DNA of 61,791 bases from a virus (IMGVR_UViG_3300011335_000652:1-61791), one strand, 5' to 3'; shown: positions 3,417-57,109, numbered from the stretch's first letter. The notes: generated from the letters alone by a model not told the origin. A program made the numbers and translations.

Positions 3417-5927
3417 TTAATAGTAGTCTGCTTTTTTCTGGCCGACCATGTACATAGCGTCCTCATCTTCGAAGTCAGATGGGAGTTTAATAAACCCACC
3501 TTGGCGAAATCTCATCAGGGCCATAACACTCGAATCGACAAGGTCATCATGGCTGGCAAACGGGAATCCCGCAATTTCTTCGATCACTTCTTCCGCCCAG
3601 CGAGTCTCCGGCGCCCATACGAGACCAGAGGAGATAATATCTGCAACAGAGTTGAGACGAGCCATCTTGTCCCCGGTCCCCCGGTGGGGGGTGTACTCCT
3701 GCACGGGGATACCCATGCGGCGCATCTCTTGATAGAGAGCGACACCAGAGCTCTTTTTTTCCACGATGAATGAGTCTGGCTCCCACGCCTTATACTGCTC
3801 GAGCGCCATCTTCTTCAGTTCAGGAAACTCGTACCGGTCCTTGATAGCATCAAGGAGGATGATGTTGTGGTTGTTGACCTCTTCGTTGAAGAAGACACCC
3901 CAGATTGTCAGCGCGGTAAAGTCGTTCCTTGTCTTTGTTTCTGCTGCGGAGTCGAGTGACATGATGATGTACTCACACTCTGGGGGCTCATCGTCTTCCC
4001 ACCGCATCCACCATTCACGTTTGACGATGGCCGCTTCTTCTGCCGTTGGCTGCTGCTGATACTGCGAGTTCCACTGAAACACAGGCATCGACGCCTTGGT
4101 GCGCAGCAGCGCCGTCATATCGAAGAACTCTGGCCACAAGGGCTTCTGCACGAAGCGCGTTACTTCCTCACCGTCTTCGTCGGTCTCAGTCACTTCGACA
4201 TCGAGAATCGCGGGGAACTCAATAATGTTGTACTGGTCGGCGCCCTCGTTCTTGACCATGTCTCGCGTAACCCGTCCGGTCAGGTCGTCGAGGTGCCATC
4301 TAGTATTGTGAGATACCAGCCTGTTGGCAATGAAGTTTTCCGTATCCTCAACTTGAAGGTCAAAAACTTCTTCATCGCCACTAGGTGTGATTGACTCAAT
4401 CCGCTCGAGTGTGAAGTCGGAAATACGCGGCAATGGCGGTAGCGGTACGCTCAGTTTTTGCATATCCAACTGCAAGGTTGCAGTCATTACAGAGGAGCGC
4501 CCGTACTTGCCCACCTTCATGGCAGTGGTCAACGCAAAGTTTGTTTCCCCAATGCGCTCGGGTATTACTACTCGATGGGGGCTGTTTGCAGATAGCACAA
4601 ACTCCGCCTTGCTCCGCCAAGCGGTAGTTATACTCCTCCATAGAGATACCATACCTGTACTTGAGCTTAGCTTCCCTATTCTTTTCAGGGCTACGACGCC
4701 CATAGCCATCCGCCCACCGCACTGCGTTGTAGTGACTAGCGCACTTGTTGCCGGCGTGTGCGGGTTCGTCGCACCCGTGGGTGTCGCATGTTTTTCCCTT
4801 ATACTTCCCGTGATATCCAAGTCCTCGGTAGGGCGCGTTTGGGTGCTTGCGATGCCATGATTCACGGGACCGGCAAGCTCCGCACTTGGACGGTCTGGTC
4901 TTAGCTCGCCCGGTACCGGTGCACCCTTCAGTGATACAAGGGAATCGCCCACCTTCAAGTCTCGTACTCGTGTCCATACAAGCGCTCCTGTTTCGGTCCG
5001 GACGAGGAACGGATGTCGCTCGTTAGCCTTCACCGTATGTGAGGTTGTCGTAATTGTAAATACGGAATCTATACCATTTGACCGGTGATTCAAGACTTTT
5101 TGGTTGGTTAACACCCCATCACGATAAGATGCGACCATATCCCCGGGGCGAATATCACGTAGCGGAGTTTCAGTCCCATCAGGGCGCAACACGGGAGTAT
5201 CCCCCGTCATACACTGTACGATAGCTACGCGCCCCCCGGGCATCAAACGTGTCCGGGCCCCGAAGGTGAACCACTCGTATGCTTTCTGGAACACTTCAAA
5301 GTTTCCGTTGATGACGTCCTGTTCCGAGTGAGGGTCATCGACCAGCAGGAGGTCAGCACCGCGACCAGCGATTGACGAGCCGATACCACAAGCGAAGTAC
5401 TCACCGCCAAAGTTTGTGTTCCACCGGCCAGCAGACTTACTGTCTGTAGCCAAGCTGACATTTGGAAACAGTGCATGATACGCCTCCTCGGAGAGGAGGT
5501 TACGAACCTTTCGACCAAAATCCACCGCGAGGTCCGTGGTATGCGACACCATCATAACCTTCTTGTCCGGATTCCGCCCGAGGAACCATGCGGGGAAATA
5601 GATTGACACAAGCTGGCTCTTACCATGACGGGGCGGGATGTTCACGCAGATCCGGTCTTCGCCATCCTCGGCGTCGGGCCCCCGCTCAATCGCCATCAGC
5701 TGATCAGCCAAGATTCTGTGGTGCCGGCCAACCTTGTAGTCAGGCTGCATGTATTTACAGAACTCAATCAAGTCATCCCGGGCAGCATCCAGCTGCTTTC
5801 GGCGCTCTAACTCCTCGAGCTGCGTTGTGATAGCAACTACCTCCGCCTCAGAGAGGCGGTCTAGATTCTGCAGGAGAAGATTAAGTTCCTCTTCACTGAA
5901 CCCGAGGTCGAGCGAGGTGTTAGCCAT
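3417..5927 (-). CDS. terL: Terminase large subunit, intein-containing
   Basis: PPRHGKS Walker A, LLLVDDPH Walker B, TRWH motif, C-terminal RNase H-like nuclease (SLDSA...HDDLVD). Confidence 0.95.
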   Translation of the reverse strand: MANTSLDLGFSEEELNLLLQNLDRLSEAEVVAITTQLEELERRKQLDAARDDLIEFCKYMQPDYKVGRHHRILADQLMAIERGPDAEDGEDRICVNIPPRHGKSQLVSIYFPAWFLGRNPDKKVMMVSHTTDLAVDFGRKVRNLLSEEAYHALFPNVSLATDSKSAGRWNTNFGGEYFACGIGSSIAGRGADLLLVDDPHSEQDVINGNFEVFQKAYEWFTFGARTRLMPGGRVAIVQCMTGDTPVLRPDGTETPLRDIRPGDMVASYRDGVLTNQKVLNHRSNGIDSVFTITTTSHTVKANERHPFLVRTETGALVWTRVRDLKVGDSLVSLKGAPVPGELRPDRPSAELAGPVNHGIASTQTRPTEDLDITGSIREKHATPTGATNPHTPATSALVTTTQCGGRMAMGVVALKRIGKLSSSTGMVSLWRSITTAWRSKAEFVLSANSPHRVVIPERIGETNFALTTAMKVGKYGRSSVMTATLQLDMQKLSVPLPPLPRISDFTLERIESITPSGDEEVFDLQVEDTENFIANRLVSHNTRWHLDDLTGRVTRDMVKNEGADQYNIIEFPAILDVEVTETDEDGEEVTRFVQKPLWPEFFDMTALLRTKASMPVFQWNSQYQQQPTAEEAAIVKREWWMRWEDDEPPECEYIIMSLDSAAETKTRNDFTALTIWGVFFNEEVNNHNIILLDAIKDRYEFPELKKMALEQYKAWEPDSFIVEKKSSGVALYQEMRRMGIPVQEYTPHRGTGDKMARLNSVADIISSGLVWAPETRWAEEVIEEIAGFPFASHDDLVDSSVMALMRFRQGGFIKLPSDFEDEDAMYMVGQKKADYY
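4305..5213 (-). mobile_element. Intein (303 aa) in terL
   Basis: Q|CMTGDT N-terminus, ANERHPFL block B, VFDLQVEDTENFIANRLVSHN|T C-terminus; removal restores IVQ-TRWH. Confidence 0.93.
4396..4977 (-). CDS. Endonuclease VII-family homing endonuclease overprinted in the +2 frame inside the intein
   Basis: YGISMEEY...QGGVCAIC...LCVDHCH...VRALLCNDCN motif; own SD AGGAG (4985-4989) 7 nt before ATG. Confidence 0.88.
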   Translation of the reverse strand: MDTSTRLEGGRFPCITEGCTGTGRAKTRPSKCGACRSRESWHRKHPNAPYRGLGYHGKYKGKTCDTHGCDEPAHAGNKCASHYNAVRWADGYGRRSPEKNREAKLKYRYGISMEEYNYRLAEQGGVCAICKQPPSSSNTRAHWGNKLCVDHCHEGGQVRALLCNDCNLAVGYAKTERTATAIAAYFRLHTRAD

Positions 5928-6204
5928 TCTTCAGCCCGGCATAGTAGTCGTGCGCTAGGGAGGATACTGCAAACCCAAGGGAGATCCCCCCGCCAGAGAT
6001 ACGGGCTCCTGCCCACCCAGTACCAAGCGCATGGTCTGGTAGGACATATGCGTAAGCGATCGCGCTAACCTCTCCCGTCTTGGCGCGCTCGAGCAGTTCT
6101 TCCAGAACTTGGATGATTTCTTCGTCTGGACCGCCCGGCACTGAGGGACCAGCCGGGCCAACGGGCCCGCCATGTAGAGATATAACTTTACTCATCTTCA
6201 TCAT
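5920..6204 (-). CDS. Hypothetical protein between terS and terL
   Basis: 94 aa ORF overlapping both neighbours in operon fashion. Confidence 0.65.
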   Translation of the reverse strand: MMKMSKVISLHGGPVGPAGPSVPGGPDEEIIQVLEELLERAKTGEVSAIAYAYVLPDHALGTGWAGARISGGGISLGFAVSSLAHDYYAGLKNG

Positions 6205-6787
6205 CCCATGCTGAGTCTAGAATTTCGGCATTAAGCAGCGGAGTCGCGTCGATGACGTCTGCATCTTCAACTGGATTCACCAACTTGCTGAGCTTAGCCC
6301 GCAGGTTTGCACGGAGATCCTCGCTGGTCTTGTTGACGATCGTGATTTCGCTTTTCTCAGCAAAGAGCCCCACGTCGCTGATCTTGCCAAGTAGCTCGAG
6401 GGCCTTGATCCTAATCCTTGGATCGGGATTGTCTGATTCCTCTATGAGCCGGTTGGTCACGAAGTTACGCACCTGTTCGGCGCTTTCGACAATGTTGTAG
6501 CTGAACTTCTTCAGCTGCTGGTCAATCGCTCGTAATGCGGCAGGGGTCATTTGTCCTATCCGTTTGTCAGTCAGCGAACGCGAGGCCTCGTCCGGGTTTT
6601 TAGCAAAAGCAAGTGTGACCTTGCCCGCCGCCTCAATGTCGGCATCAGTGTACGATATCTCAAGGCCATGCTCGGCAAGCAGGTCAAGGGTCTTTGTAGC
6701 AGCTGCAGCCATCTTGTCTACATCTAGTGGGTGCTGCGGTGAACTTGGCAGCGGTGGCCCGAAAGTAGGAGTAAGGTAGATCGTCAA
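6188..6787 (-). CDS. Probable terminase small subunit
   Basis: Position upstream of terL; RIKALELLGK motif typical of TerS-like proteins. Confidence 0.65.
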   Translation of the reverse strand: MTIYLTPTFGPPLPSSPQHPLDVDKMAAAATKTLDLLAEHGLEISYTDADIEAAGKVTLAFAKNPDEASRSLTDKRIGQMTPAALRAIDQQLKKFSYNIVESAEQVRNFVTNRLIEESDNPDPRIRIKALELLGKISDVGLFAEKSEITIVNKTSEDLRANLRAKLSKLVNPVEDADVIDATPLLNAEILDSAWDDEDE

Positions 6788-6960
6788 AAAATATCATCCT
6801 GTTTTAGGGCGTGTGTGCAGTGTACTGCAATATACCCCCCTATGGGAAGTGGGTCTTATAAGGGGGGCCTTTCTCTATGGAGGGGGGTGGGGGTAGAGGA
6901 AGTAAGATTTGAGCATGGGGGGGTCTTGTTTGCCTGCCGGTAGGCGTGTATGCCGGCAAA

Positions 6961-7036
6961 GTATCTGTAGCTCAATGGTTAGAGCTGGGCGCTCATAACG
7001 CTTAGGTTAGGGGTTCGAATCCCTTCAGATACACCA
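6961..7036 (+). tRNA. tRNA with CAU anticodon (elongator Met or Ile2)
   Basis: Acceptor GTATCTG/CAGATAC, D-arm, anticodon loop CT-CAT-AA, GGTTCGAATCC T-arm, encoded CCA; the 1:72 pair is G-C, so not an initiator tRNA. Confidence 0.93.
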
Positions 7037-7355
7037 AATCTAGCAAAATATAGTACCGTATACAAAGTGCGATGTTCTCGCATTGTTCTAGTTTGGCTAT
7101 GTTCTGGTATTGTTCCAAACGTGATTTGTTTGCGCAGATTAGTATGTATAAGCGGCGCAGCCCGATCGGTTTTTCGGGGGGTAGGCCCCTAGGTGGGGGT
7201 AATCAAATCGCGATTTTGGCCCCCGAAATAAGGAAATCGGAGTTAGATTTGATCTAACTACCACGCCACCCGCTTGTATCCAATACCAAACTATGACAAA
7301 ACAGATTCACCGACGGCAAGAAATAAGACCTTCGGCATCACAAGGAAAATAAGCA

Positions 7356-8309
7356 ATGTCTAACGCAATGAACACTACCGCCTTGCAGAATATCAACCCC
7401 CTAACCGTTCAGATCCCAGCCGCATTTGCACTGGCATTTGAAACCGCCGCCGACGACATCGACCGCTTGGCCGGATCGACCAAGACCCTGCGCGATGCAG
7501 CGGAAGAGGCGGGCTTTACCTTGGCGCACTTGAGCGCCCCAAACAAAGAAAGCACCCCCGAACATCGGTTTAGCTATGCAATGGCGCGCCGCATGGCAGC
7601 GCAACGCTTGGCATCCAAACTAGGCGCACCGCTGGAAGCATTTGAACCGGTATTCAACGACGCGACCGAGAGCAGAGCAGCGATAACAATCGGGGGAGAA
7701 ACCAAGAGCAAGAAAGCATGGCAACAGAGCCTGAATTTCGTTTGGAAACCAGTGAAAAAGGCTTGGGTCGACAACATCCGCGCCGAAGCCGACGACCTGC
7801 AAGCAATCGCCCGTGCCGCCAAGACCGAGCTTGACGCCTTGAAAGAGGCGGCGGAAAAAACGGCCATGATTGTGGACGCACAAGAGGCGCAAGAACAGGA
7901 GGTGCAGAAGCAACTTGCCCTTGCGAACGCAGAAGCAGACGCAGCAGCGACCGCTAAAGACAAAGCCAAGGCCAAGGCCAAACTGGCAATGGTCGAGGAG
8001 AAACTCGAGGCGCAGCGCGCCCTAGTCGCGGAAGCAGAGGCAGCAGATCAGGCAGCATTGCTTGCTTGCGCCATTCAAGCAGAAGCACTGGACGAAATCC
8101 AACTGGACGTCCAAGAGAAGCTGGCCCTCTTGCCAGCAGCGCGCGGCCCGAAAGAACGCGCGAACCCCGTTGACGCCTTCGCGGCAAAACTGGACGCCTT
8201 GATCAAAACCGCAACCGAAACAAGCGATGACTTCGGCAGCGCTGCGCTGGACGACGTGGTGCATCACCTGAAACGCGCCCGCTCTTTTCTGAATCAAGTC
8301 GCACACTAA
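7356..8309 (+). CDS. Ala-rich coiled-coil hypothetical protein, first early gene
   Basis: 317 aa ORF with SD AAGGA; long heptad-like Ala/Glu/Lys stretch. Confidence 0.75.
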   Translation: MSNAMNTTALQNINPLTVQIPAAFALAFETAADDIDRLAGSTKTLRDAAEEAGFTLAHLSAPNKESTPEHRFSYAMARRMAAQRLASKLGAPLEAFEPVFNDATESRAAITIGGETKSKKAWQQSLNFVWKPVKKAWVDNIRAEADDLQAIARAAKTELDALKEAAEKTAMIVDAQEAQEQEVQKQLALANAEADAAATAKDKAKAKAKLAMVEEKLEAQRALVAEAEAADQAALLACAIQAEALDEIQLDVQEKLALLPAARGPKERANPVDAFAAKLDALIKTATETSDDFGSAALDDVVHHLKRARSFLNQVAH

Positions 8310-8370
8310 GCAAACTAGGCGCCCCGCAATGGGCGCCTTTCAACCCTCATCCAAATAAGGAAAGCAGACC

Positions 8371-8451
8371 ATGAAAGAAAAAATCCTAGACGTGATCCAA
8401 CTGATCCTTCTGATCACCATCGCCATCATTGTATGGCACATCACCCCTTGA
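8371..8451 (+). CDS. 26-aa single-TM peptide (MKEKILDVIQLILLITIAIIVWHITP)
   Basis: Below the ORF-track cutoff; SD AAGGA; followed directly by a terminator. Confidence 0.55.
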   Translation: MKEKILDVIQLILLITIAIIVWHITP

Positions 8452-8456
8452 CCATC

Positions 8457-8489
8457 ACCCCGCAACCGAAAGGTTGCGGGGTTTTTTTT
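8457..8489 (+). terminator. Rho-independent terminator
   Basis: ACCCCGCAACC-GAAA-GGTTGCGGGGT followed by a T run. Confidence 0.9.
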
Positions 8490-8564
8490 ATGTCCAAAAT
8501 AAGGATCGCCGCCCCGCCCCGCCCCGCCCCGCCAGCAGCGCGGCCCCCGCGCCGTTCGGCTCCT

Positions 8565-8805
8565 CCGTCGCCAGTTACTACAGGCGGTGGCGTGTGCAGC
8601 TAGTATGCAGGCGGATTCGGTTTTGCTGTGACCAGTTACTACAGGCGGTGGTGTGCTTGCTGCGTGGCGCAGAGTTAGCTGGGCTCTAACCAAGATCGGC
8701 TTGGCCGTGACCAGTTACTTCAGGCGGTGGTGTGCGCTGCACAAACTATAGTTAGACCTCGTCTAACAAAACTGCCCATGACCAGTTACTTCAGGCGGTG
8801 GTGGG
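8565..8805 (+). repeat. Four spaced copies of ~28-nt GTGACCAGTTACTWCAGGCGGTGGTGTG
   Basis: CCAGTTAC cores at 8571, 8632, 8711 and 8782 (periods 61, 79, 71) with non-identical spacers. Confidence 0.9.
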
Positions 8806-8989
8806 CTTCGCGTAGTTAGACGCCGTCTAACTACATCCGAACATGACTGTGTGGCCGCAGAGTAAACTCTCGCGGGCCTATGGTGGTTTTCACGCTGCCA
8901 ACCTATAAGCGCCACATCAGGTGAGCTTCGTCGGTCGTCTGGGCGTTTCGGCCCGTTTTTTCTTTTCGATAAGTTCCCTGAACTTATCG

Positions 8990-9367
8990 AACATTTTTTT
9001 CTCCCTGTCAACCCCCCTTGTAATGTTCCTAATGGAACATTTTTTATTTTGAGGAGGAACAATATAACCCCATGAAATCATTGGATAAAACGGGTAATGT
9101 TCTTTTGTTCCTAATGTTCCTGATCGGACGCACCTGTCCAGAAATTTCCTCCCGCTCGTCCGACCGCAAGCGCGTCGCTGCACCCCAAAAGCAAAACCCG
9201 ATAAAGGTAAAAACAAGGAACATTAGGAACAAAAGGAACATTATATAAAGAGTATAAAAAACCTTTATATATATCAACTACTTACTGCCTTTTTCCCTGC
9301 CTTGTAATGGAACATTTTTGGTTTTAAAAATGTTCCATTTGGAACATTACATGATATCAAGGACTTA
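8990..9367. promoter_or_regulatory. Candidate replication origin: AT-rich, GGAACATT/AATGTTCC iterons, IHF-consensus sites
   Basis: About 10 or more GGAACA(TT)-type copies in both orientations; inverted repeat 9096-9121/9216-9242; WATCAANNNNTTR matches at 9272 and 9355. Confidence 0.55.
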
Positions 9368-9420
9368 GCTGCCGACGCCCACCGCGCCTCTACAAGTGCC
9401 TTAGTAAATGCTCCGTTTCC

Positions 9421-9450
9421 TTGACATAGGGTATCAAACCATGCTATAGT
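9421..9450 (+). promoter_or_regulatory. Sigma70-type early promoter
   Basis: TTGACA-18 nt-TATAGT with extended -10 TG. Confidence 0.75.
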
Positions 9451-9510
9451 ATACTTGTAGGTAGGAAAAAGTTACATCCGCTTACACGGCCCGCGCCCCA
9501 GCGCTGACCC

Positions 9511-9522
9511 TGCTCTTTATCA
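9511..9522 (+). promoter_or_regulatory. boxA-like antitermination site
   Basis: TGCTCTTTATCA, one mismatch to rrn boxA TGCTCTTTAACA, ~60 nt downstream of the promoter. Confidence 0.45.
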
Positions 9523-9940
9523 TCGTGATTGGCGCCCGCTCGACGTGGCGCCACGGCCCAGCTAGGGATGCACAGTTAGACGACATCTAACTCTCCCGAT
9601 AATGCTAGAACTACATGGCCCTTACTTGGACGCGCAGTTTACGCTGCCGCGTGGATCAGGCATACGCCTGCGCAGAAATCAAGAACCGCCAAGGGAGCGT
9701 ATTCCCATCCAGTGATCGCGATGCGACACGACAAAACTCGAAGCCCCACGCAGCCATCCAAGTGACGCAAAGAACGCGAGTTAGACATCGTCTAACTTGT
9801 GGAGTGACAATCTTTGCCAGCCCGCGCCTTGCCTAGACAGCAGTAGAACGCGACGCTTATGTAGTTCGACAAAAGTGAGCCAAGCAAACCCAAGGGATTT
9901 TACACTAAATCAACCCCGCAAGCGGGGAACAAACACAAAA

Positions 9941-10006
9941 CCGAAACAGGCGACATACTAGCCGCCTGTCCACGTGCCTAGCAACCACGTGCTGATGAGG
10001 AAGCTA
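9941..10006 (+). ncRNA. Type II hammerhead ribozyme
   Basis: CC-GAAA-CAGGCG/CGCCTG-TC-CACGTG/CACGTG-CTGATGA-GG; GUC cleavage triplet ending at 9970; loop I TAGC can pair with 3' GCTA. Confidence 0.85.
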
Positions 10007-10025
10007 ACCTATAAAGGAACACACA

Positions 10026-10433
10026 ATGACCGACCTTAACTTCACCGACAAGACACCCGTGCTCGCTGGCAGCGACATGAGGAACGAAACGTTTCGTCGC
10101 GCCTTCGACGCTATTGCTCGCGCAGTAGTGCCGTTCTTTGACATTCCCCACGCATACTATGGGGACTTGTTGTGGGACTCGTTCACGGCAGTCGGCCTAG
10201 CCGAAGGCGACACCGTATTTCTTATGGCACGTAGCATGGGGACGTCGATCTTGTTCCCACGCAATCAGTCCTATGACAGCATCGCCACCTGCTATGCAGA
10301 GGCGCGGAAACTTGCAGATGGTTCCGCGTTGAAGAACTTCCCCACCGCTGTCTTTTCGATCAAGCGCGAGGGGGCGCAGCGTTTCATCGTGACCCACTTG
10401 GTTACACGTCAGTGGGAGGCGGACACACTATGA
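10026..10433 (+). CDS. Hypothetical early protein
   Basis: 135 aa; SD AAGGA. Confidence 0.7.
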   Translation: MTDLNFTDKTPVLAGSDMRNETFRRAFDAIARAVVPFFDIPHAYYGDLLWDSFTAVGLAEGDTVFLMARSMGTSILFPRNQSYDSIATCYAEARKLADGSALKNFPTAVFSIKREGAQRFIVTHLVTRQWEADTL

Positions 10434-10609
10434 ACGGAGAGATTGCTACATTCCGTGAGTTGCCTGTCGGCGCTCACTTCACCTGCAACGGCAGTCGCTG
10501 CATAAAAGAGTCGTCGCGCACAGCGCGACTGATCGACTATGGACGGGTGTTTTACTTCCGCGCCATTGACCGCATCACCATCGGATATGCGGGACTCGAG
10601 GTGGCCTAG
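10430..10609 (+). CDS. Hypothetical protein
   Basis: ATGA overlap with the upstream gene; MNGEIATFRELPVG. Confidence 0.6.
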   Translation: MNGEIATFRELPVGAHFTCNGSRCIKESSRTARLIDYGRVFYFRAIDRITIGYAGLEVA

Positions 10610-10664
10610 TGCCACCTCACCAAAAACGAAACCACGCACCATATAACCCAAGAAAGGTTACACC

Positions 10665-11576
10665 ATGAACAACACACACTTCACGCTGCCCGAGGCAGCT
10701 TCGGTCCCGACACTCTCTTCGTCGGCAATGCTAGTTCACCTCAGCATCGGGGTCTGGACGGCCTCGAAGAAAGACAAAGCCGCAAGTGCCGAGGTAGCGG
10801 ACAGCCACGGCGCCAACAGAAATCTTACGCGAACCTATAAGACGATCATTGACAGCCCCAAGCTGGACGCGATCAAGGCCCTAGCGTCTACCATCCACGG
10901 CACGAACCGTGCAGCCACGCTAGATTGGGCAGGGGATATGCGGTTGCTCACCACGGCTAACTACTTCAAGCACCACGCAGCCCTGACCGCATACGAGACC
11001 GAGTTCTGGCGCTTGGTGGATGATATGCTCACCACAGACTACACGTGGGGTATAACTCAGATGCAGCTTAAGCTAGGCACAATGTTCAACGCAGCGGATT
11101 ACCCATCGGTGTCCGAGTTACGGCGCAAGTTTTCGTTCCGTATCTCCTACCTACCCGTGCCAGACGTAGGTGACTTCCGCGTGGACATTGCCAACGACGC
11201 GCAGCAGCAACTACGCGACCACTACGAGCGGGTCTACACCGAGGCAATCACCAACGCCATGACGGGACTATGGACCCGCCTCTACGACATCATGAAAGTG
11301 GTGTCGCGGCAACTGGCCGTCGAGCGCGATGCCGAAGGCAAGGAAATCAAAGGTCGTATCTTTGACGGGTCTATTGACACCCTACGTGAACTGATCGGGC
11401 TGCTCGAGACTTGCAACCTGACCAACGACCCTGCCATGCAGCGGATGCAGCGGACCCTGTCCAGCGCCTTCGAGGGGATTTCTTCGAAAGAAGATCTCAA
11501 ATCTGCACTTGTTCGTGAGGAAACCAAGCGGGCGGTAGACAAAGCCATCGCGGCCCTGCCTTCGCTGGATTGGTAA
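10665..11576 (+). CDS. DUF3150-like protein
   Basis: 303 aa; MLVHLSIGVW and DYPSVSELRRKFSF motifs resemble the family found beside phage AAA/VWA pairs. Confidence 0.6.
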   Translation: MNNTHFTLPEAASVPTLSSSAMLVHLSIGVWTASKKDKAASAEVADSHGANRNLTRTYKTIIDSPKLDAIKALASTIHGTNRAATLDWAGDMRLLTTANYFKHHAALTAYETEFWRLVDDMLTTDYTWGITQMQLKLGTMFNAADYPSVSELRRKFSFRISYLPVPDVGDFRVDIANDAQQQLRDHYERVYTEAITNAMTGLWTRLYDIMKVVSRQLAVERDAEGKEIKGRIFDGSIDTLRELIGLLETCNLTNDPAMQRMQRTLSSAFEGISSKEDLKSALVREETKRAVDKAIAALPSLDW

Positions 11577-11582
11577 CTAGCG

Positions 11583-11903
11583 ATGGAACCTAGATGGCGC
11601 GTCTTGTATGCCGACCGCTTCCCATACATCGGTGGCACAGCCAAGTTTGATATTTGGTATGCGCCAATTACCAACCCTCACGGCATCGAAAGTATACGGG
11701 TCGTATGGGACCACAGAACGTGGGACGCGTATTATATCTGTTCGGATCGCCAACTTGGCGAGGCAGAATGGAACGAACCAGACGGCCCGACCGAAGCCGA
11801 CATGGTAGAGATAGAGCGATACATACTTTTGTTCGCTCCATATGTTAACCTCGCGCCCCGTTATACGGGGCGCATAACCGAAGAAGGGAACGACGATGGC
11901 TAA
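11583..11903 (+). CDS. Paralog family member 1 (MEPRW...YIGG..KFDI)
   Basis: Shares its N-terminal motif with the genes at 13279-16005. Confidence 0.7.
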   Translation: MEPRWRVLYADRFPYIGGTAKFDIWYAPITNPHGIESIRVVWDHRTWDAYYICSDRQLGEAEWNEPDGPTEADMVEIERYILLFAPYVNLAPRYTGRITEEGNDDG

Positions 11904-12159
11904 GAAACCGAAGAAGACCGCGACGACAGGTGAGGAGTTCTTTAACCTCCTCGAGGCAGCAGCGCCCGATAAGATGCAGGGCATCGACGTGATCAAGGTG
12001 ATCACAAGTGTCGTGCTGGCCTACGCAGACGACGAGCGCGAAGCGGGGGCGTGGATCATGTCTATGGCCCGCATCGTCAAAGATTACTACATTATGGAGA
12101 ACGACGGCGAATGCACCTGCACCAAGTGCACCGCCGAGCGTAAAGCAACCGCACACTAA
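11896..12159 (+). CDS. Hypothetical protein with C-terminal CxCxxC
   Basis: 87 aa ORF coupled to its neighbours. Confidence 0.65.
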   Translation: MAKKPKKTATTGEEFFNLLEAAAPDKMQGIDVIKVITSVVLAYADDEREAGAWIMSMARIVKDYYIMENDGECTCTKCTAERKATAH

Positions 12160-12181
12160 CAACACACACAGGAGAACTACC

Positions 12182-13279
12182 ATGTCTAACGCACAACGCC
12201 TATACGAACTCGACCTCGACCAGATCACTGGCCTTATCAAGGCCACGGGCCACAAGCGCACGATCTTCGTGCAGGGCCACATGGGCACAGGCAAATCGTC
12301 CTTGCTCAAGATGCTGGCAACGGCACTGCCCACGCACAAGCCAGTCTACTTCGACTGCACCACCAAAGACTTGGGCGACATCACCTTGCCACGCATCGCC
12401 GAGGTCAACGCCGATACACACTACGTATCGTATGCACCCAATGAGGAGTTGGGTCTGCACCACAAGCAGCCAGTGATCGTCATGCTCGACGAGTATGGCA
12501 AGGCTAACCCCGCCGTGAAGCAGGGTCTCACAGCGTTCATGCTCGAGCGCAAACTTGGCAGCTACAAGCTACATCCTGACAGCATCGTGTTCTGCACCAC
12601 CAACCTTGGTGTCGAGGGCGTGGGCGATTTGCTTGTGGCGCACCAGCGCAACCGCGTCAGTGTAGTGACGGCCAAGAAGCCAAGCAACACGTCGTGGATC
12701 GAGTGGGGCATCGAGAACGGCATCGACCACAGTCTCTTGGGCTGGGTCAAGGACAATCCCCAACTGTTCGCAGACTTCCGCGACATGAAGGACGCCGACG
12801 AGAATCCCTACGTGTTCCATCCCAAAGCACTGGGGCGGGCGGCGTTCGTCACGCCTCGCTCGCTAGAGGCAGCATCGGACATCCTCAAGGAACGTCACTT
12901 CATGGACGACCAGACAGTGACCGCTGCACTGATGGGCACAATCGGGGATCGGGGGGCTATGGATATGATGGCCTTCGTCAAGCTGGCAGATCAACTGCCC
13001 TCGCTGGACTCGATCAAGAAAGACCCGATGAATGCCAAGGTTCCGACCAGCGCGGCTGCTGTGTGCATGGTAGTTTACCGCACGATGGCATCGCTCGAGG
13101 CTTCATGGATCGACGCATGGATGGACTACATGAGCCGCTTGGACAAGGAAGCACAGGGTATGTTCGCCAATGGTGTTCGCTCGCCCAAGTATTCCAAGCA
13201 AGCCTTGGTGTTCACCAATGCCAAGTTTACGAAATGGGCTCAAATGAACGGGTATTTGTTTGCAGCCGATCGCAAGTAA
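12182..13279 (+). CDS. MoxR-like AAA+ ATPase
   Basis: GHMGTGKS Walker A, VMLDE Walker B, RNR arginine finger, TPRS sensor II; SD AGGAG before ATG 12182. Confidence 0.85.
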   Translation: MSNAQRLYELDLDQITGLIKATGHKRTIFVQGHMGTGKSSLLKMLATALPTHKPVYFDCTTKDLGDITLPRIAEVNADTHYVSYAPNEELGLHHKQPVIVMLDEYGKANPAVKQGLTAFMLERKLGSYKLHPDSIVFCTTNLGVEGVGDLLVAHQRNRVSVVTAKKPSNTSWIEWGIENGIDHSLLGWVKDNPQLFADFRDMKDADENPYVFHPKALGRAAFVTPRSLEAASDILKERHFMDDQTVTAALMGTIGDRGAMDMMAFVKLADQLPSLDSIKKDPMNAKVPTSAAAVCMVVYRTMASLEASWIDAWMDYMSRLDKEAQGMFANGVRSPKYSKQALVFTNAKFTKWAQMNGYLFAADRK

Positions 13280-13533
13280 TGAGCCGCTACATCGTCTCAA
13301 ACCTCTTGCACTACATCGGGGGCGTCGATCAGTTCGACGTCCTCTTTTCTACCTATGCGGAGTTCTACGCAATAAAGTGGGCCGTCAGCTACGGGAGCAA
13401 AGTGGTTACCAAACACACAATGCAGCAGCCGCAGCGCCTACAATCCGAATGCCAAGGCATCGGCATGACAGCGGAGCAAGCAGAGCGCATCTGCTTGCTC
13501 GTCAAACTATTCGGACCACAGGAAACAGCGTAA
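13279..13533 (+). CDS. Paralog family member 2 (HYIGGVDQFDV)
   Basis: TAATG overlap with the AAA gene; weak motif match to the family. Confidence 0.55.
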   Translation: MSRYIVSNLLHYIGGVDQFDVLFSTYAEFYAIKWAVSYGSKVVTKHTMQQPQRLQSECQGIGMTAEQAERICLLVKLFGPQETA

Positions 13534-13570
13534 GTTATACGCCCCGTATAACCCAAGAAAGGAATACACT

Positions 13571-14785
13571 ATGTTTATGATGAACCAACTCACCCCTGCA
13601 CAGCGTGTGCAGAAGGCAACAATCGACGTCATGGCCAAGGATCGCTACGCTGCACTCGCTGGCATCCTGATGATCGGTCGCAAGACTGTCGAGACCGACG
13701 CAACCAAATGCCCTACGGCATACACCAACGGCAAGGATATCATCTTCGGCGCCAATTTCATTGAGGGCCTAAACGACGCAGAACTGCGCTTCCTCTTGCT
13801 GCACGAGGAATACCACAAACTCTACCGCCACCTTACGACATGGAAGTGGATGTGGGACGAGAACCCACAGCTTGCCAACATGGCCTGTGACTACGTCATC
13901 AACTGCAAGATCGTCGATGACAACAAGGACGGCTTCGCCACCATGACGGGCAAACTCACGATGGGTTGCTTCGACGAACAGTATCGCGGATGGGACGCAG
14001 CACAGGTGTTCAATCACCTCAAGAAGAACCCGCCGCCCCAAGGCGGGGGCAAGGGCGGGAAAGGGCAGGGCGGCGAAGGCTTCGACGATCACGGCTGGGA
14101 AGAAGCCGAGGAGATGACCGCCGATGACAAGAACACCCTTGCACGTGAGATTGACGAGGCGATCCGTCAGGGCGCGCTGATGGCGGGTAAGACAGGCACG
14201 GGCGGCGACCGTGCCTTCGACGATCTACTCCAACCCCAAGTGGACTGGCGCGAGGTGCTACGTGAGTTTGTGCAGACTACGTGCACAGGCAGCGACTACT
14301 CGACATGGAAGAAGCCCAACCGCCGCTACATCGGGGCTAACATCTACATGCCAAGCGGCATCACCGAAAGTGTCGGGGAGATGGCTATCCTGATCGACAC
14401 GTCAGGGTCTACCTTTGCACCGGGCGTGTTACCCGCCTTCATGTCCGAGGCCAAGGCGATCTGCGATCTGGTCAAGCCGTCGCGTGTCCACATCATCTAC
14501 TGGGACACCAGCGTATGCCAAGCCGAGGTATACGAGCGGGACGAACTCGAGGGTATGATCTCCTCGACGCAGCCCAAGGGTGGTGGCGGCACACAAGTCC
14601 AGTGCGCCATTGACTATATGCGCGACAACAACATTGCGCCGCAAGCGTCTATCGTGCTGACGGATGGTTACTTGGGCGGCGCGTGGGGTAACTGGTCATG
14701 TCCTGTCCTGTGGTGCGTGATCGACAACAAGAACGCATCGCCTAACTGCGGCACGACAGTCCACATCAACACGCAGGATATGTGA
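13571..14785 (+). CDS. DUF2201-type metallopeptidase + VWA domain protein
   Basis: HEEYH zincin motif; DTSGS MIDAS, GGGGT and LTDGY VWA motifs. Confidence 0.85.
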   Translation: MFMMNQLTPAQRVQKATIDVMAKDRYAALAGILMIGRKTVETDATKCPTAYTNGKDIIFGANFIEGLNDAELRFLLLHEEYHKLYRHLTTWKWMWDENPQLANMACDYVINCKIVDDNKDGFATMTGKLTMGCFDEQYRGWDAAQVFNHLKKNPPPQGGGKGGKGQGGEGFDDHGWEEAEEMTADDKNTLAREIDEAIRQGALMAGKTGTGGDRAFDDLLQPQVDWREVLREFVQTTCTGSDYSTWKKPNRRYIGANIYMPSGITESVGEMAILIDTSGSTFAPGVLPAFMSEAKAICDLVKPSRVHIIYWDTSVCQAEVYERDELEGMISSTQPKGGGGTQVQCAIDYMRDNNIAPQASIVLTDGYLGGAWGNWSCPVLWCVIDNKNASPNCGTTVHINTQDM

Positions 14786-15099
14786 TGGAACCGCAATGGG
14801 ATAACAACACGGTCGACGCACGGCCCGCTAAATTCGTCGGGTCCGTCGAGCGGTTCGATATATACTTGGTGCAGTTTGCGAGTGGACGGTGTTGGGTCAG
14901 GGTGGCGTGGGAGCGCGGAGCAGACGACTACGAAAGCTACGCAATCGAGGGGCGCCGCCTACTGACTGAACCCGTGTGGGACGTAAAGAACGCCCCCACG
15001 CAGAAAGACCTCATCCTCATCGAACACTACCTGTCCCTGTTCGTGCCTGAACTGGGCATCAAGTCACGTTATATGGAGCGTATAACCGATGGAACCTAG
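14782..15099 (+). CDS. Paralog family member 3
   Basis: MEPQW...KFVGSVERFDIY. Confidence 0.7.
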   Translation: MMEPQWDNNTVDARPAKFVGSVERFDIYLVQFASGRCWVRVAWERGADDYESYAIEGRRLLTEPVWDVKNAPTQKDLILIEHYLSLFVPELGIKSRYMERITDGT

Positions 15100-15394
15100 A
15101 TGGACGCCACTATACCAACAAGCAAATTTTACCCAAGAGGTGTTCGTCGGATACATAGAGGAGTTCGATATGTATATCGACTGGGATACGGAAGCTACCA
15201 GCGTCGTCACGCTTGTGAGTGAGCACAGCGGCGCTCTTGGGTATAACTTCGAGTCGTTTCGAAAACGGGATGAGCAGCTCGTCCTTGCAGACGAGTTTGC
15301 GCAAGATCTACACATCACCCCCTATCATATGTGCCTACTCTACGCCCTGTGCATAGAGCACGGGATAATCAAAGGAGAACCAGATGAAGCCTAG
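15089..15394 (+). CDS. Paralog family member 4
   Basis: MEPRW...FVGYIEEFDMYI...ITPYHMCLLYA..IEHG. Confidence 0.8.
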   Translation: MEPRWTPLYQQANFTQEVFVGYIEEFDMYIDWDTEATSVVTLVSEHSGALGYNFESFRKRDEQLVLADEFAQDLHITPYHMCLLYALCIEHGIIKGEPDEA

Positions 15395-15680
15395 ACACGA
15401 ACCCACTTACGACCAGAGCGACTACCCAAACGAAAAGTTCGTCGGATACATCGAGGAGTTTGATATGTATATCGACATAGCCCACGGAGATGAGTTGATT
15501 ACTATTGTCGGCCCCCGTTCCGAGGATCACATGAATAACTTCGACACGTTTAGGCTGAACGGAAACGAACTCGAACAGATTCCGCATCCAGACCTACGCA
15601 TAACCCCCTACCATATGTGCCTGATCTACGCGAAAGCTATCGAGCACGGAGTAATCAAGGAGCAGAACGATGAAGCCTAG
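15384..15680 (+). CDS. Paralog family member 5
   Basis: MKPRH...FVGYIEEFDMYI...ITPYHMCLIYA..IEHG. Confidence 0.8.
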   Translation: MKPRHEPTYDQSDYPNEKFVGYIEEFDMYIDIAHGDELITIVGPRSEDHMNNFDTFRLNGNELEQIPHPDLRITPYHMCLIYAKAIEHGVIKEQNDEA

Positions 15681-16005
15681 ATACAAACCCCAATACGACG
15701 CTACGCAATACCCAAACGACAAGTTCGTCGGCTACATAGAGGAGTTCGACCTCTACATCACCCCGCACGATGACGACGATCCCTCCGAACCAGCGCGGTT
15801 CCCGCTTACTCTCGTCGGTAAAGAGAGAGGCCCCGTCGATGACCGCGAGTATAACTTTGACACGTATACGATTGAGAAGGGCATCATCGCGCCCCACGTC
15901 AATATGACCACCACCCTAAACGTAACCCCCTACCATATGTGCCTACTCTACGCAGCGGCGATAGAGCACGGGCTAATCAAGGAGCAAGAAGATGGGCTAC
16001 TATAG
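15670..16005 (+). CDS. Paralog family member 6
   Basis: MKPRY...FVGYIEEFDLYI...VTPYHMCLLYA..IEHG. Confidence 0.8.
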   Translation: MKPRYKPQYDATQYPNDKFVGYIEEFDLYITPHDDDDPSEPARFPLTLVGKERGPVDDREYNFDTYTIEKGIIAPHVNMTTTLNVTPYHMCLLYAAAIEHGLIKEQEDGLL

Positions 16006-16390
16006 CGACGTGCTACTGGCTGTAGCATTTGAGACTAAGGAGCAACTCGAAGAAGTCTGGGCGGTCTACTGCCTGAACCCCACAGTGCAGGAGCACGACC
16101 TTGCCAAGCATTGGGAGAAGAAACTTGACGGCGACTATCCAGTGCTTTGGTATTACGCCAATGGCGTCAAGTGGTATGACAGCTACGAGGACGTGATGGC
16201 TTTTGAGGAGCTGTTCACCCTTGCCGAGACCTTCGGAGAGGAGCGTGAGTTTGGTTACGCGTGGGTGAAGCTACGCATCGGCGAAGAGGATGACGACACT
16301 GAGCGCCGCAGTAACCAGAGCAAAGACGAACTCATCAGCTACCTCTACGACTGCGCGAACATCAGCCGCGCTATCGAACATTCATTCTAA
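15992..16390 (+). CDS. Conserved acidic phage protein (MGYYSDV...VKWY...RIGEEDDD)
   Basis: 132 aa ORF in the operon. Confidence 0.7.
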   Translation: MGYYSDVLLAVAFETKEQLEEVWAVYCLNPTVQEHDLAKHWEKKLDGDYPVLWYYANGVKWYDSYEDVMAFEELFTLAETFGEEREFGYAWVKLRIGEEDDDTERRSNQSKDELISYLYDCANISRAIEHSF

Positions 16391-16415
16391 GTTATACGCA
16401 TCAGGAGAAACACAA

Positions 16416-17465
16416 ATGTCACTTATCTATCTCACCAACCTCACCACCTTTGCGATGATCGAAGACCACTACAACAAGATCAAACCCCTGCGGGGCAAGA
16501 AGCACGGGGGCCAAGACGTGCGCCCTATCGGGGACCGCAAGCGTCCTTACGAGCGCATCGTAAAAATTAGCGATGACTGCTACGCCATCAGTGATGGCTG
16601 GAACTTTGGCGACCCCATCTTTGGTCGTATGTGGAACCTCGAGGGTAAACCACGTGGCGACGCTCTAGAGTTTTTTGCACCAATCGTTTGGCGTCGAGAC
16701 GCGGACGGGACCGAGACTATCAAGATCCGCAACGGCGACGGGACAGGTTCTCACCAAGGGCGCTACGCATTTATCAACCGCTGCCTACCACGCGGTCTGG
16801 CATTTAGCTTAGGTCAGCATGGCCGGCAGTATATCTTCTCCAACGGCTACAGCGCAAAGCACTTCCTCGATAAGGGGACCACTGTGCCGAAAGCAGTGTT
16901 TGCAGAGACGCTAAAGCGGAAGCGGGAGTGGGAGGCTAAACACGTCGGGCAGACGTATAAAAGCTACATGGAATGGGCGACGGACGTCCCTGACGAGGCA
17001 TCTCTTACCTTCAAGCGCGGGACGGGGGGCTGGGTGCTGGTCAGCCACGGCGGCAACAAGGAAGAACCGCCAAAGCCACGTGTCGTCGTCGACCACGACG
17101 CCAAGGGCGCACTCAAGGACCAGATCGAAGCCTTCCGAACGTGGGTTCACATCATCGCGCCGATGATAGAGCCGCACAGGCTGCACAACACATCTGACTA
17201 CGGCGACACTATATACGAGTGGCAGAAAGCAAACGGTGAGCAGTATCCCCGCCAGTGGGGAGAGTTCAGTCGGCGTGTAACGCCCGACCTCGCACGGGCT
17301 ATCGTTGCTGATCCAGAGCACCCACTACGCGTGGTAATGGCGGCGTTTGCGATTAGCGAGGCGGACCTCAAGAAACCCTGCGAAGACGTCGAAGAAGTAA
17401 CGGCGCTCAAGGGGCGGTTCAATCGGTGGATCAACCGCGTTCTCGCCTTCAACAAGAAAGTATAA
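16416..17465 (+). CDS. Hypothetical protein
   Basis: SD AGGAG before ATG 16416; 349 aa. Confidence 0.75.
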   Translation: MSLIYLTNLTTFAMIEDHYNKIKPLRGKKHGGQDVRPIGDRKRPYERIVKISDDCYAISDGWNFGDPIFGRMWNLEGKPRGDALEFFAPIVWRRDADGTETIKIRNGDGTGSHQGRYAFINRCLPRGLAFSLGQHGRQYIFSNGYSAKHFLDKGTTVPKAVFAETLKRKREWEAKHVGQTYKSYMEWATDVPDEASLTFKRGTGGWVLVSHGGNKEEPPKPRVVVDHDAKGALKDQIEAFRTWVHIIAPMIEPHRLHNTSDYGDTIYEWQKANGEQYPRQWGEFSRRVTPDLARAIVADPEHPLRVVMAAFAISEADLKKPCEDVEEVTALKGRFNRWINRVLAFNKKV

Positions 17466-17472
17466 GGAGCAC

Positions 17473-17736
17473 ATGGACCCTAGTTATCAAACGCTTGACA
17501 ATAAGCTGGTGTATAGGGTGTGTATACAGCGTGATACTAATTCCGTTGTTATAACACCCCTTGGTATGGAGTGCCTTGAATTTGATTTAGAGGGTGAGTA
17601 TAGTTGGGGTCAGCTTCCGCAATGGATGACTGACAAACTCGCTGTATTAAACACCCTCTATGTTCCACCACCACCAAATGAAGTAAAGGGCGTAGGCCAG
17701 CGCATCAGCCCAAACGTCTTTTGGGTCTACAAATAA
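17473..17736 (+). CDS. Hypothetical protein
   Basis: SD AAGGAG; 87 aa. Confidence 0.65.
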   Translation: MDPSYQTLDNKLVYRVCIQRDTNSVVITPLGMECLEFDLEGEYSWGQLPQWMTDKLAVLNTLYVPPPPNEVKGVGQRISPNVFWVYK

Positions 17737-17748
17737 GAAAGAGCACTC

Positions 17749-18039
17749 ATGGCTATGACACCCGAGGTCAAGGTTAAACGCGCCGTTGTGCAGCAACTCA
17801 AGGCATTGGGGGCATACTACTTCTATCCTGTCACTGGCGGGTTTGGGGGTAGCGGCGTTCCCGATATCGTGGGTTGCTACAACGGCCTGTTCTTTGGCAT
17901 CGAGTGCAAAGCTGGCAGCAACAAACCAACGGCGCTGCAACAAAAGAACCTGTCCGACATCAAAGCGTCGGGCGGGATCGCCTTAGTTATAAACGAGTCC
18001 AACGTGAACTCTGTTACCGAAGAACTCAATAGGAGATAA
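17749..18039 (+). CDS. VRR-NUC domain nuclease (Holliday junction resolvase-like)
   Basis: TPE.KVK...GVPDI...GIECKA...PTALQ motif. Confidence 0.85.
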   Translation: MAMTPEVKVKRAVVQQLKALGAYYFYPVTGGFGGSGVPDIVGCYNGLFFGIECKAGSNKPTALQQKNLSDIKASGGIALVINESNVNSVTEELNRR

Positions 18040-18041
18040 AA

Positions 18042-18599
18042 GTGAACGACACACAATGGGTTACACTTACTATCAATAATGCAATCCCTTCGGGGGCTGC
18101 GTTTGGTTACGATCAGATCACGGGCGCATCCTGCTTTATCCCTGCAAGCGTGATGTTTAGCACGGGCGCGCAGATCGGGGAGATGGTTGAGGTCCTGCTG
18201 ATCGACAACCCAAATCTCGCTGCTCGTGCGCGGACCCCCTACATGGTGCAGCACCTACGGAAAGCCTCTCGTCAAGCATCCCCTATCCTCACCCCGCGCA
18301 CCGCACCAATCGTGACGCCTACCCGCCCACCAACAGACCTTGCGGAGTTTGTTCGCACCTGTCTGCACTCTGGCGGGGTGTGGACAATTACCGATATTCT
18401 TGCTGAAGCCGACGTATCCGTATCGTCTGAAGATCCGCGCGCTCAGTATATCATATCGTCAACTTTGCGGACGATGTTTGCAAACAACGAGTGTGCGATG
18501 TGGACTATGTATACGAACGGGGACGCGACCATCCCACAGCGGACTTGGTTTAGCTGCTTCCCCCAAAACGTAGATGTTGCTGAGTGGGAGGGAGAGTAA
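18042..18599 (+). CDS. Hypothetical protein
   Basis: 185 aa; SD AGGAG. Confidence 0.65.
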   Translation: MNDTQWVTLTINNAIPSGAAFGYDQITGASCFIPASVMFSTGAQIGEMVEVLLIDNPNLAARARTPYMVQHLRKASRQASPILTPRTAPIVTPTRPPTDLAEFVRTCLHSGGVWTITDILAEADVSVSSEDPRAQYIISSTLRTMFANNECAMWTMYTNGDATIPQRTWFSCFPQNVDVAEWEGE

Positions 18600-18605
18600 C
18601 TAGCG

Positions 18606-19430
18606 ATGGATAACGAACTGACAGCAAAACAGGGCGGCGTAAAGTTTGACCAAGACAAACCATGCTATGACCTGATCCCGCCCGAGGTCGAAGAAGCCAT
18701 GGCGCAAGTTCTGACCTACGGGGCGAAAAAATACACAACGGAGGTGCAGAACGAATGGGACGCCCTTCTATATGCCCAGTGTGCAACGGCGCTGCAGGTA
18801 GCTACGCCAAAGGGAAATGTCGTAGGTGTTACGAGAAACACCTACGAGAGTCCAATCCCGATTTTGCAGAACGCCAACGTGAAAATCGAAGGGCTTGGGA
18901 GCGTAAAAACCCAGACAAGGTCGCTAAGCTGGCAGAGCGTAGACGCACTGATCCAGCAGCACGTAGCCGAGACGCTAAAACCAAGCGGGACTCCCGCCTT
19001 GCGCAATATGGACTTACCGAAACCACCTATGCCGCACTATGCGCTGAAGGATGCGCAATCTGTGGCGCCACCAAACACCTGCACATTGACCATTGTCACA
19101 AGTCAGGGGAGTTTAGAGGTATACTTTGCTCCCGATGCAATAATGGACTTGGGTTTTTGGACGATTGTGTGGAGGGGCTTGAACGAGCACTTCGGTATCT
19201 CAAGGCCGCAGAACAAAAGCGGCGAACGTAATTGGGAGCAGGGTATGGATTGGGGCCGTGTCTACGCCGCGATGCGGCGGCATATGGGCGCATGGTGGGG
19301 CGGAGAAGATACTGACCCCGAAAGCGGTATGACGCACTTGTGGCACGCCGCTGCGTGTATTGCGTTCCTTGTAGCGTTTGAGGCGCAAGGCGGGGGAAAC
19401 GACGACAGACCAAAAAGGAAGAAGAAATGA
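18606..19430 (+). CDS. dATP/dGTP diphosphohydrolase-domain (DUF5664-type) protein with a 162-aa in-frame insertion
   Basis: GVKFDQDKP.YDLIP...LTYGAKKY | insertion | GERNWEQGM...AMRRH...DPESGMTHLWHAAAC. Confidence 0.85.
   Translation: MDNELTAKQGGVKFDQDKPCYDLIPPEVEEAMAQVLTYGAKKYTTEVQNEWDALLYAQCATALQVATPKGNVVGVTRNTYESPIPILQNANVKIEGLGSVKTQTRSLSWQSVDALIQQHVAETLKPSGTPALRNMDLPKPPMPHYALKDAQSVAPPNTCTLTIVTSQGSLEVYFAPDAIMDLGFWTIVWRGLNEHFGISRPQNKSGERNWEQGMDWGRVYAAMRRHMGAWWGGEDTDPESGMTHLWHAAACIAFLVAFEAQGGGNDDRPKRKKK
18735..19220 (+). mobile_element. Frame-preserving 486-nt endonuclease insertion (no intein or intron features)
   Basis: Splits the normally contiguous KKY-GERNW motif; consists of 20 nt of leader with SD plus the endonuclease ORF. 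Boundaries approximate to a few nt. Confidence 0.75.
18755..19231 (+). CDS. Endonuclease VII-family homing endonuclease overprinted in the +2 frame
   Basis: YGLTETTY...CAICG...LHIDHCH..G.FRGILCSRCNNGLG; SD GGAGG at 18740-18744. Confidence 0.88.
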   Translation: MGRPSICPVCNGAAGSYAKGKCRRCYEKHLRESNPDFAERQRENRRAWERKNPDKVAKLAERRRTDPAARSRDAKTKRDSRLAQYGLTETTYAALCAEGCAICGATKHLHIDHCHKSGEFRGILCSRCNNGLGFLDDCVEGLERALRYLKAAEQKRRT

Positions 19431-57072: not shown

Positions 57073-57109
57073 AGAAAAAAGGGGGAAGGTTTCCCCGCCC
57101 CCTTTCTAT
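57071..57109 (-). terminator. Terminator-like hairpin after the MCP gene
   Basis: Minus strand ATAGAAAGGGGG...GAAA...CCCCCTTTTTTCTAT. Confidence 0.65.

Follow-up and report, generated by a model that had tools for sequence, protein, structure and literature searches.

On the usual view, a homing endonuclease gene spares its host gene only when it sits in an intron, in an intein or between genes. Nuclease genes of the free-standing type are also reported inside coding genes whose function survives, as with mobE in the nrdA gene of Aeh1 (Gibb and Edgell 2007) and with fractured genes that have split inteins (Dassa et al. 2009); in both, the host is broken into two polypeptides, whereas in the arrangement described here the host frame is continuous. 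This arrangement occurs twice in the complete virus record IMGVR_UViG_3300011335_000652, whose 61,791 bases, taken as a whole, are called the window below. Two open reading frames (ORFs) of the endonuclease VII (EndoVII) family, recognised by the Pfam profile Endonuclease_7, are nested inside larger phage genes, one in an intein of the terminase large subunit (TerL) gene and the other in a gene of the dATP/dGTP diphosphohydrolase family (called dGTPase here).

The closest described systems are the out-of-frame EndoVII inteins of actinobacteriophages (Gosselin et al. 2025, bioRxiv 10.1101/2025.01.02.630785). In the passages of that preprint cited here, the type is called new and rare, its proposed origin is the entry of a free-standing nuclease gene into an intein, and the fillers, that is, the polypeptides read in the host frame across the nuclease gene, have no recognisable structure. 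The TerL element of the window belongs to this recently described kind and is found here in a phage which is not an actinobacteriophage. The TerL host, the intein ends CMTGDTPVL...SHN/T (the slash marks a junction) and the position of EndoVII between the splicing blocks, in what those passages call 'frame 3' (+2 here), are alike, and the nucleases of Affeca, Keitabear and Sedona, which they name, are 53% identical to that of the window. While the type is called rare there, we found 236 relatives in IMG/VR, the best 80 of which were examined. The same passages contain neither a frame-specific substitution test nor a stop-avoidance test, both of which are made here.

The intein family and insertion site are also those of the mycobacteriophage intein TerL6-f from Chandler gp6, for which Kelley et al. 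(2016, PMC5050341) report efficient splicing when it is placed between MBP and GFP in an MBP-intein-GFP reporter; the nested EndoVII ORF is not mentioned in the part of that article used here. In canonical inteins, the nuclease interrupts the Hint splicing domain at the same topological place, but as an in-frame domain; here it is a separate polypeptide in another frame and the in-frame filler is unconstrained. For a host without an intein, a literature search for an analysis of this form found, in the texts seen, nothing beyond one descriptive sentence on an out-of-frame HNH gene in a methylase gene, in the genome announcement of Mycobacterium phage Applejack (PMC12613952).

Two nuclease genes nested in one phage genome

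The TerL locus comprises the following features (nt, nucleotides; aa, amino acids; SD, Shine-Dalgarno sequence).

3417..5927, minus strand: terminase large subunit gene, 836 aa precursor; Pfam Terminase_6N, Terminase_6C and Intein_splicing; PHROG 38
4305..5213, minus strand: intein, C239 to N541 (303 aa), then T542; CMTGDTPVL...LVSHN/T; Intein_splicing 60.3 bits
4396..4977, minus strand: nested EndoVII-family ORF, 193 aa, +2 to TerL; Endonuclease_7 2.7e-16
4985..4989, minus strand: SD-like AGGAG, 7 nt before the nested ATG, within the N-terminal splicing domain of the intein

The N-terminal nucleophile of the intein is present (C239 in ..AIVQ/CMTGDT), as is its C-terminus (..LVSHN/T542, that is, His-Asn with Thr at +1, then RWH), and the splicing-domain profile PF14890 matches with 60.3 bits (cut-off 35.8). 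By analogy with TerL6-f the window intein is likely to splice. The nested ORF has its start within the N-terminal splicing domain and runs as far as the beginning of the C-terminal one, and thus stands in place of the normal in-frame endonuclease domain. When the intein is left out, the records nearest to the window TerL are Pelagibacter-phage-like (45-47% identity).

The dGTPase locus comprises:

18606..19430, plus strand: dATP/dGTP diphosphohydrolase-family gene, 274 aa, with internal insert; PF18909 (dGTP_diPhyd_N) 3.5e-30
18735..19226, plus strand: 492-nt insert, host residues T44-E207 (filler peptide), from alignment with uninterrupted alleles
18740..18744, plus strand: SD GGAGG, 10 nt before the nested ATG, read in the sequence
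18755..19231, plus strand: nested EndoVII-family ORF, 158 aa, +2 to the host; Endonuclease_7 9.7e-17

The PF18909 match falls in two separated stretches, the second being residues 202-268 (profile positions 33-99). In uninterrupted homologues (about 100-118 aa) the sequence is ..GAKKYAARNWEQGMDW.., and the insert takes the place of two Ala codons of the uninterrupted allele. Its length is taken up by the SD and the nuclease ORF, the TAA of which overlaps host codons R208-N209. An intein was considered here and rejected: no Hint profile matches the 274-aa product, in which PF18909 is the sole Pfam match at E <= 0.01, and the junctions (T44 and E207/R208) are not intein-like. A group I or group II intron was also rejected, given that Rfam shows no intron at gathering score anywhere in the window and nothing at all at 18500-19500 even at E <= 1, that the insert consists of SD and ORF, and that the host frame is selected to be open. 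A promoter and terminator scan around the insert yielded no more than the shuffle level.

Both nested ORFs lie on the strand of their host and at +2 (2 mod 3) from its frame, with offsets of 950 nt in TerL and 149 nt in the dGTPase. Across them the host frame has no stop in either gene; the third frame has 18 in the TerL copy and 14 in the dGTPase copy. An earlier note, made from the sequence alone, had already placed EndoVII-family ORFs at these positions inside other genes, with the same offsets, an SD for each and a stop-free host frame over both overlaps. The coordinates and Pfam matches, the recomputed offsets, the AGGAG and GGAGG read before the ATGs and the stop counts all agree with it.

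A third EndoVII gene provides an internal control, being free-standing between head-region ORFs:

56461..57072, minus strand: third EndoVII gene, 203 aa; PF02945 85.2 bits in one scan, 83.2 in another

The three window copies match Endonuclease_7 (PF02945) with 59.7, 61.1 and 83.2 bits, against a cut-off of 23.6. The nested pair carries the motif of this family, conserved Cys pairs with a D-H-C-H ... C-N core, read as VDHCH..C.DCN in the TerL copy and IDHCH..CSRCN in the dGTPase copy. Among PDB sequences, the dGTPase-nested nuclease matches Hpy99I (9e-7). Since the two nested nucleases are just 28% identical, over 78 aa, they are probably separate invaders. A search of a phage collection for DNA nearly identical to either nested region gave no match.

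Conservation, probable mobility and frame-specific constraint in relatives

The IMG/VR relatives of the TerL element come from a pattern scan with the nested protein, which is independent of the host frame. In each of the 80 loci the nuclease, 47-65% identical to that of the window, is at +2 within a TerL ORF whose frame is open over the entire nuclease match; the host ORF has about 790-850 aa wherever the whole gene lies in the locus. The intein start motif CM[TVA]G[DE]T is found in 76 loci (two of the other four are cut at the 5' end of the contig) and the HN[TSC] end occurs at the expected distance in 79. The TerL-intein form is common in environmental phages and is no actinobacteriophage rarity. 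Its matches in a tblastn search with the nested protein are in terminase genes of Gordonia and Mycobacterium phages, including Chandler, where the offsets are the same as in Phlyer. In Affeca and Phlyer, the terminase is a single annotated coding sequence with an unannotated EndoVII ORF at +2 inside an intein starting CMTGDTPVL, and the nuclease of Gordonia phage Affeca is the one with 53% identity mentioned above. A same-strand EndoVII ORF at 2 mod 3, as in the window, Affeca and Phlyer, fits the description of an out-of-frame homing endonuclease intein.

Some TerL loci are more complex. In L020 (492-4025) TerL has two inteins, confirmed with Pfam, the upstream one with an in-frame LAGLIDADG and the downstream one with an out-of-frame EndoVII. 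Judged by ORF length alone (about 1150-1180 aa), L022, L025, L032, L033 and L077 may also have two. In L032 and L033 the nuclease frame contains a premature stop and the host frame is still open.

For the dGTPase, a search with the filler only returned 14 other PF18909 protein clusters (273-324 aa) with a filler at 50-87% identity. Among the alleles that DNA scans of IMG/VR and metagenomes brought up, most were uninterrupted and about a dozen were filled. The nuclease is at +2 and the host frame open in 9/9 distinct filled sequences; the eight other than the window nest a nuclease 57-92% identical to its own in the same way. The filled alleles have diverged to 37-63% host-frame identity, all with the frame kept. 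A second, larger EndoVII lineage occupies the same dGTPase site, GAKKY/../GERNWE (L217, 674-1315; L226, 1141-1746). Its nuclease is 39-42% identical to that of the window and also at +2 in an open host frame; the L226 host ORF extends to the end of the locus and is not seen whole. In L172 of the dGTPase set a stop ends the nuclease frame early and the host frame is open; this locus, like L032 and L033, has the look of a nuclease in decay within a host gene that still works.

Both elements are sporadic among close relatives, and are present or absent at exactly the same conserved sites. In the closest relative found, G006, whose extein is 91-94% identical to that of the window, residues 239-541 are exactly absent (...IAIVQ/TRWH...) and the dGTPase is filled. 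G005 and G008, with TerL about 75% identical, have neither element, and four complete genomes of about 61-62 kb which carry the TerL element show no dGTPase match.

The initiation signals of the nested ORFs are conserved as well. At the aligned first residue, the 52 distinct contexts of the TerL set have ATG (50) or GTG (2), and the eight distinct contexts of the dGTPase set all have ATG and an SD-like core. This favours separate translation of the nuclease, as the earlier note had proposed, and both products are likely to be made independently, to judge from these signals.

We measured mean pairwise nucleotide differences at host codon positions 1, 2 and 3, together with host-frame amino acid identity, in the overlapped and non-overlapped parts of the host genes. 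The TerL comparison set consists of 77 full-length sequences, reduced to 63 distinct ones.

TerL, non-overlapped splicing domain: host positions 0.253 / 0.200 / 0.545; amino acid identity 0.678
TerL, overlapped middle: host positions 0.266 / 0.546 / 0.336; amino acid identity 0.354
dGTPase, enzyme flanks: host positions 0.296 / 0.230 / 0.591; amino acid identity 0.648
dGTPase, insert: host positions 0.236 / 0.487 / 0.296; amino acid identity 0.409

In both sets host position 3 is the fastest in the flanks; inside the insert the fastest is nuclease position 3, which is host position 2 and evolves at a pace like that of flank third positions. Judged by these position-specific rates, amino acid constraint follows the nuclease frame within the insert and the host frame beyond its ends. 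Nuclease-frame identity is 0.591 in the TerL set, with 33/178 invariant columns (3/173 in the host frame), and 0.689 in the dGTPase set; overall, identity lies at 0.35-0.42 in the filler and at 0.59-0.69 in the nuclease. The comparison per frame in homologues, which the earlier note had suggested as a check, thus places constraint in the nuclease frame, with filler host position 2 as fast as synonymous-like flank sites. The enzyme parts of filled dGTPase alleles, to judge by their substitution pattern, are still under purifying selection.

A proposed mechanism and its alternatives

We consider it likely, with a probability of roughly 0.8, that the window contains two EndoVII homing genes overprinted at +2 in host genes, each with its own SD and ATG, with the host reading through and host selection keeping the frame open. 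Two unrelated homing endonuclease genes of the EndoVII family would have entered phage genes, each at a conserved site. Each nuclease would be expressed in the +2 frame from its own SD and ATG, while ribosomes on the host gene would pass through the nuclease gene in the host frame. In TerL, the off-frame translation would be a linker of roughly 190 aa, free of sequence constraint, which would leave with the intein by protein splicing. In the dGTPase, the 164-aa off-frame peptide would stay in the enzyme, which would tolerate it as an internal insert lying after helix 1 and before the conserved motif RNWEQGMDW. Host selection would police stops, and the sequence itself would be shaped by selection on the nuclease. 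By cutting uninterrupted alleles in co-infecting relatives, the nuclease presumably spreads by homing.

Several points weigh against this reading. In one rival account the open host frames are due to chance, arising from EndoVII composition and GC content without selection. EndoVII composition does lower the number of stops in the relevant frame: about 2.0 and 2.8 are expected in the nested nucleases, against about 6-8 from genome-wide density. For the window sequences, the probability of zero stops is 0.091 (TerL) and 0.027 (dGTPase) under synonymous resampling with phage codon usage, and 0.41 and 0.03 under permutation within the ORF. The window alone is therefore modest evidence against chance, its open frames being only mildly improbable, and the figure of about 4e-4 given in the earlier note, from (61/64)^162, is about two orders of magnitude too small for a single sequence (P = 0.027-0.41). 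In addition, the TerL comparison covers the best 80 of 236 relatives, and no more than 38 of the 52 TerL contexts have a strict SD core, the others having weaker G-rich stretches at the same spacing. The same relative frame in 56 other proxy genes of the phage has 0.039 stops per codon and is open in 0/8838 windows of 159 codons and 0/7792 windows of 194 codons. Among relatives, stop-free host frames are found in 63/63 TerL sequences (about 9.7 expected by permutation) and 9/9 dGTPase sequences (about 0.7 expected), although the permutation nulls ignore shared ancestry and the 63 and 9 sequences are not independent trials. Taken together, the 63 TerL sequences contain no host-frame stop and a single nuclease-frame stop, as against 941 stops in the third frame. 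In 13 free-standing EndoVII genes the corresponding frame is never stop-free (1-9 stops each), the third window gene having 4 in the frame that equals the host frame of the nested genes. Only three loci related to this gene were found, and the control set was then widened with nine annotated phage genes and GMA6; the 13 genes comprise the window's own copy, these three IMG/VR relatives and the nine annotated phage genes, with GC from 0.36 to 0.66. The host frame is also open where the nuclease is broken (L032/L033, L172). These comparative data make chance untenable and leave it barely any credit. A host-frame stop would abolish the host protein, so that host selection is the probable keeper of the open frame. 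This part of the earlier note stands: it had allowed that host-frame stops might be common in homologous insertions, or ordinary EndoVII genes open by chance, and we find no such stop in the 63 and 9 sequences and no open frame among the 13 free-standing genes. The idea that only +2 is accessible, the other frame being full of stops, was also tried. It holds at the GC content of the window (12-19 stops against 0-4) and fails in high-GC actinophage genes, whose two off-frames are about equally rich in stops, and is kept as a partial explanation. Internal initiation might be dispensed with if the nuclease were made by frameshifting from the host frame as a fusion. The nested ORFs do lie on the same strand in a translated gene, and in several loci the open stretch of the nuclease frame extends some codons upstream of the ATG, but conservation of ATG or GTG in 52/52 and 8/8 contexts, with a purine-rich stretch at fixed spacing, makes this highly improbable.

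The remaining alternatives concern what the nucleases or their hosts have become. The nested genes might be domesticated phage nucleases, for example packaging junction resolvases, whose position is incidental; the Pfam family is named after T4 recombination endonuclease VII, a resolvase, and one copy is in a terminase gene. Against this stand the exact presence or absence at conserved sites among close relatives, the occupation of one dGTPase site by two EndoVII lineages, the three copies in a 62-kb genome and the decay of some relatives' copies, and we regard domestication as unlikely. It could also be that the dGTPase is a pseudogene killed by the insertion, with a frame still open because the event is recent, since 164 aa that neither intein nor intron removes lie beside the most conserved motif of the family. 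This is very unlikely, for the enzyme flanks of the filled alleles are still constrained, with codon-periodic differences (0.296/0.230/0.591) and an amino acid identity of 0.648, and filled alleles at 37-63% host-frame identity all keep the frame. A further possibility is true dual coding, in which the filler is a functional folded domain and amino acid selection acts in both frames. The AlphaFold2 model of the filled dGTPase (16 aligned sequences) must be counted among the points against an unconstrained, disordered linker: its mean predicted local distance difference test score (pLDDT) is 66, and strands and helices are predicted in the filler, with block means of 48-81, apart from one at 34, and a pLDDT of up to about 80. 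Several filler residues are also invariant in 15 sequences. Yet host position 2 in the inserts, at 0.487 and 0.546, differs as much as the flank third positions (0.591 and 0.545), filler identity is well below that of the nuclease, and the conserved residues coincide with the SD/ATG and catalytic motif of the nuclease. N49, E50 and W51 are invariant and span the nuclease ATG; T46, E47 and V48 overlie its SD and are not among the conserved columns listed. Conservation of filler residues at the SD and ATG would be due to the initiation signals of the nuclease, and we read the moderate filler pLDDT as a probable by-product of conservation imposed by the nuclease frame. Foldseek found no PDB match for the model at E <= 0.001, and the cited passages of the preprint on inteins report no recognisable structure in their fillers. 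We therefore hold a folded, doubly selected filler to be quite unlikely. A PDB sequence search with the uninterrupted dGTPase allele gave no match, which left no solved structure for locating the insert.

Other hosts, implications and neighbouring features

Nesting in a host without an intein is not confined to the dGTPase. In Gordonia phage Squiddly, gp64 (L259, 1467-3344), annotated 'DNA helicase', has Helicase_C, DEAD and SNF2 matches and no Hint match, and contains an unannotated Endonuclease_7 ORF (2396-2926, 1.8e-25) at an offset of 929 (2 mod 3). This offset is counted from an upstream GTG; the annotated start is 21 nt downstream and in frame, with the same result. The host frame across the nested ORF encodes a low-complexity filler. 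In Applejack (L273, 6659-8218), the DNA methylase gp54 contains an annotated HNH gene, gp55 (PF01844), at an offset of 355 (1 mod 3), and its methylase Pfam domain is split into two stretches. As in the window dGTPase, a nuclease ORF in another frame is wholly enclosed by a host gene that has no intein and whose Pfam domain is split; the nuclease is HNH (PF01844) at +1 in Applejack and Endonuclease_7 at +2 in the window.

The dGTPase and the Squiddly helicase are a variant in which the off-frame filler is kept in the host protein, for which we found no analysis in print. The suggestion in the earlier note that dual coding is a further strategy of homing endonucleases is borne out for the dGTPase, which has neither intein nor intron, and less so for TerL, where the filler lies in an intein and the element is a hybrid. 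The note had also left open whether the arrangement was undescribed: the TerL-intein form was published in 2025, and for the non-intein form our literature search turned up no analysis.

We lean, somewhat beyond even odds, towards a broader view in which read-through overprinting is a general, selection-maintained home for nuclease genes of the free-standing type in coding genes without intron or intein and has arisen repeatedly, in the dGTPase with two EndoVII lineages, in an SNF2-type helicase and in a DNA methylase; the TerL intein form may then be the same process and a route to new intein endonuclease domains. One nuclease family would have adopted a less costly solution in two genes of a single phage, namely a sequence whose other frame is readable by the host. 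The intein case supports the idea that inteins gain endonucleases through invasion by free-standing genes, and the TerL type now appears abundant and under measurable frame-specific selection. The non-intein case suggests that some phage enzymes have about 160 residues which are evolutionarily unconstrained, which bears on insertion tolerance. There is also a consequence for annotation: gene callers list the outer ORF only, so that nested nucleases are systematically missed and host proteins appear oddly long. The earlier note had expected this, and the GenBank records of Affeca, Phlyer and Squiddly are annotated in this way.

Other features of the window are given here for completeness. Over 105 aa, the free-standing EndoVII copy shares 34% identity with the copy nested in the dGTPase. 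Long antisense ORFs, which may be due to chance, lie opposite two of the EndoVII genes, at 4387-4860 (plus strand, 157 aa) and 56522-57166 (plus strand, 214 aa). The sole Rfam match in the window is a tRNA gene at 6961-7033 (plus strand), and a major-capsid-like ORF (57145-58050) adjoins the free-standing EndoVII gene.

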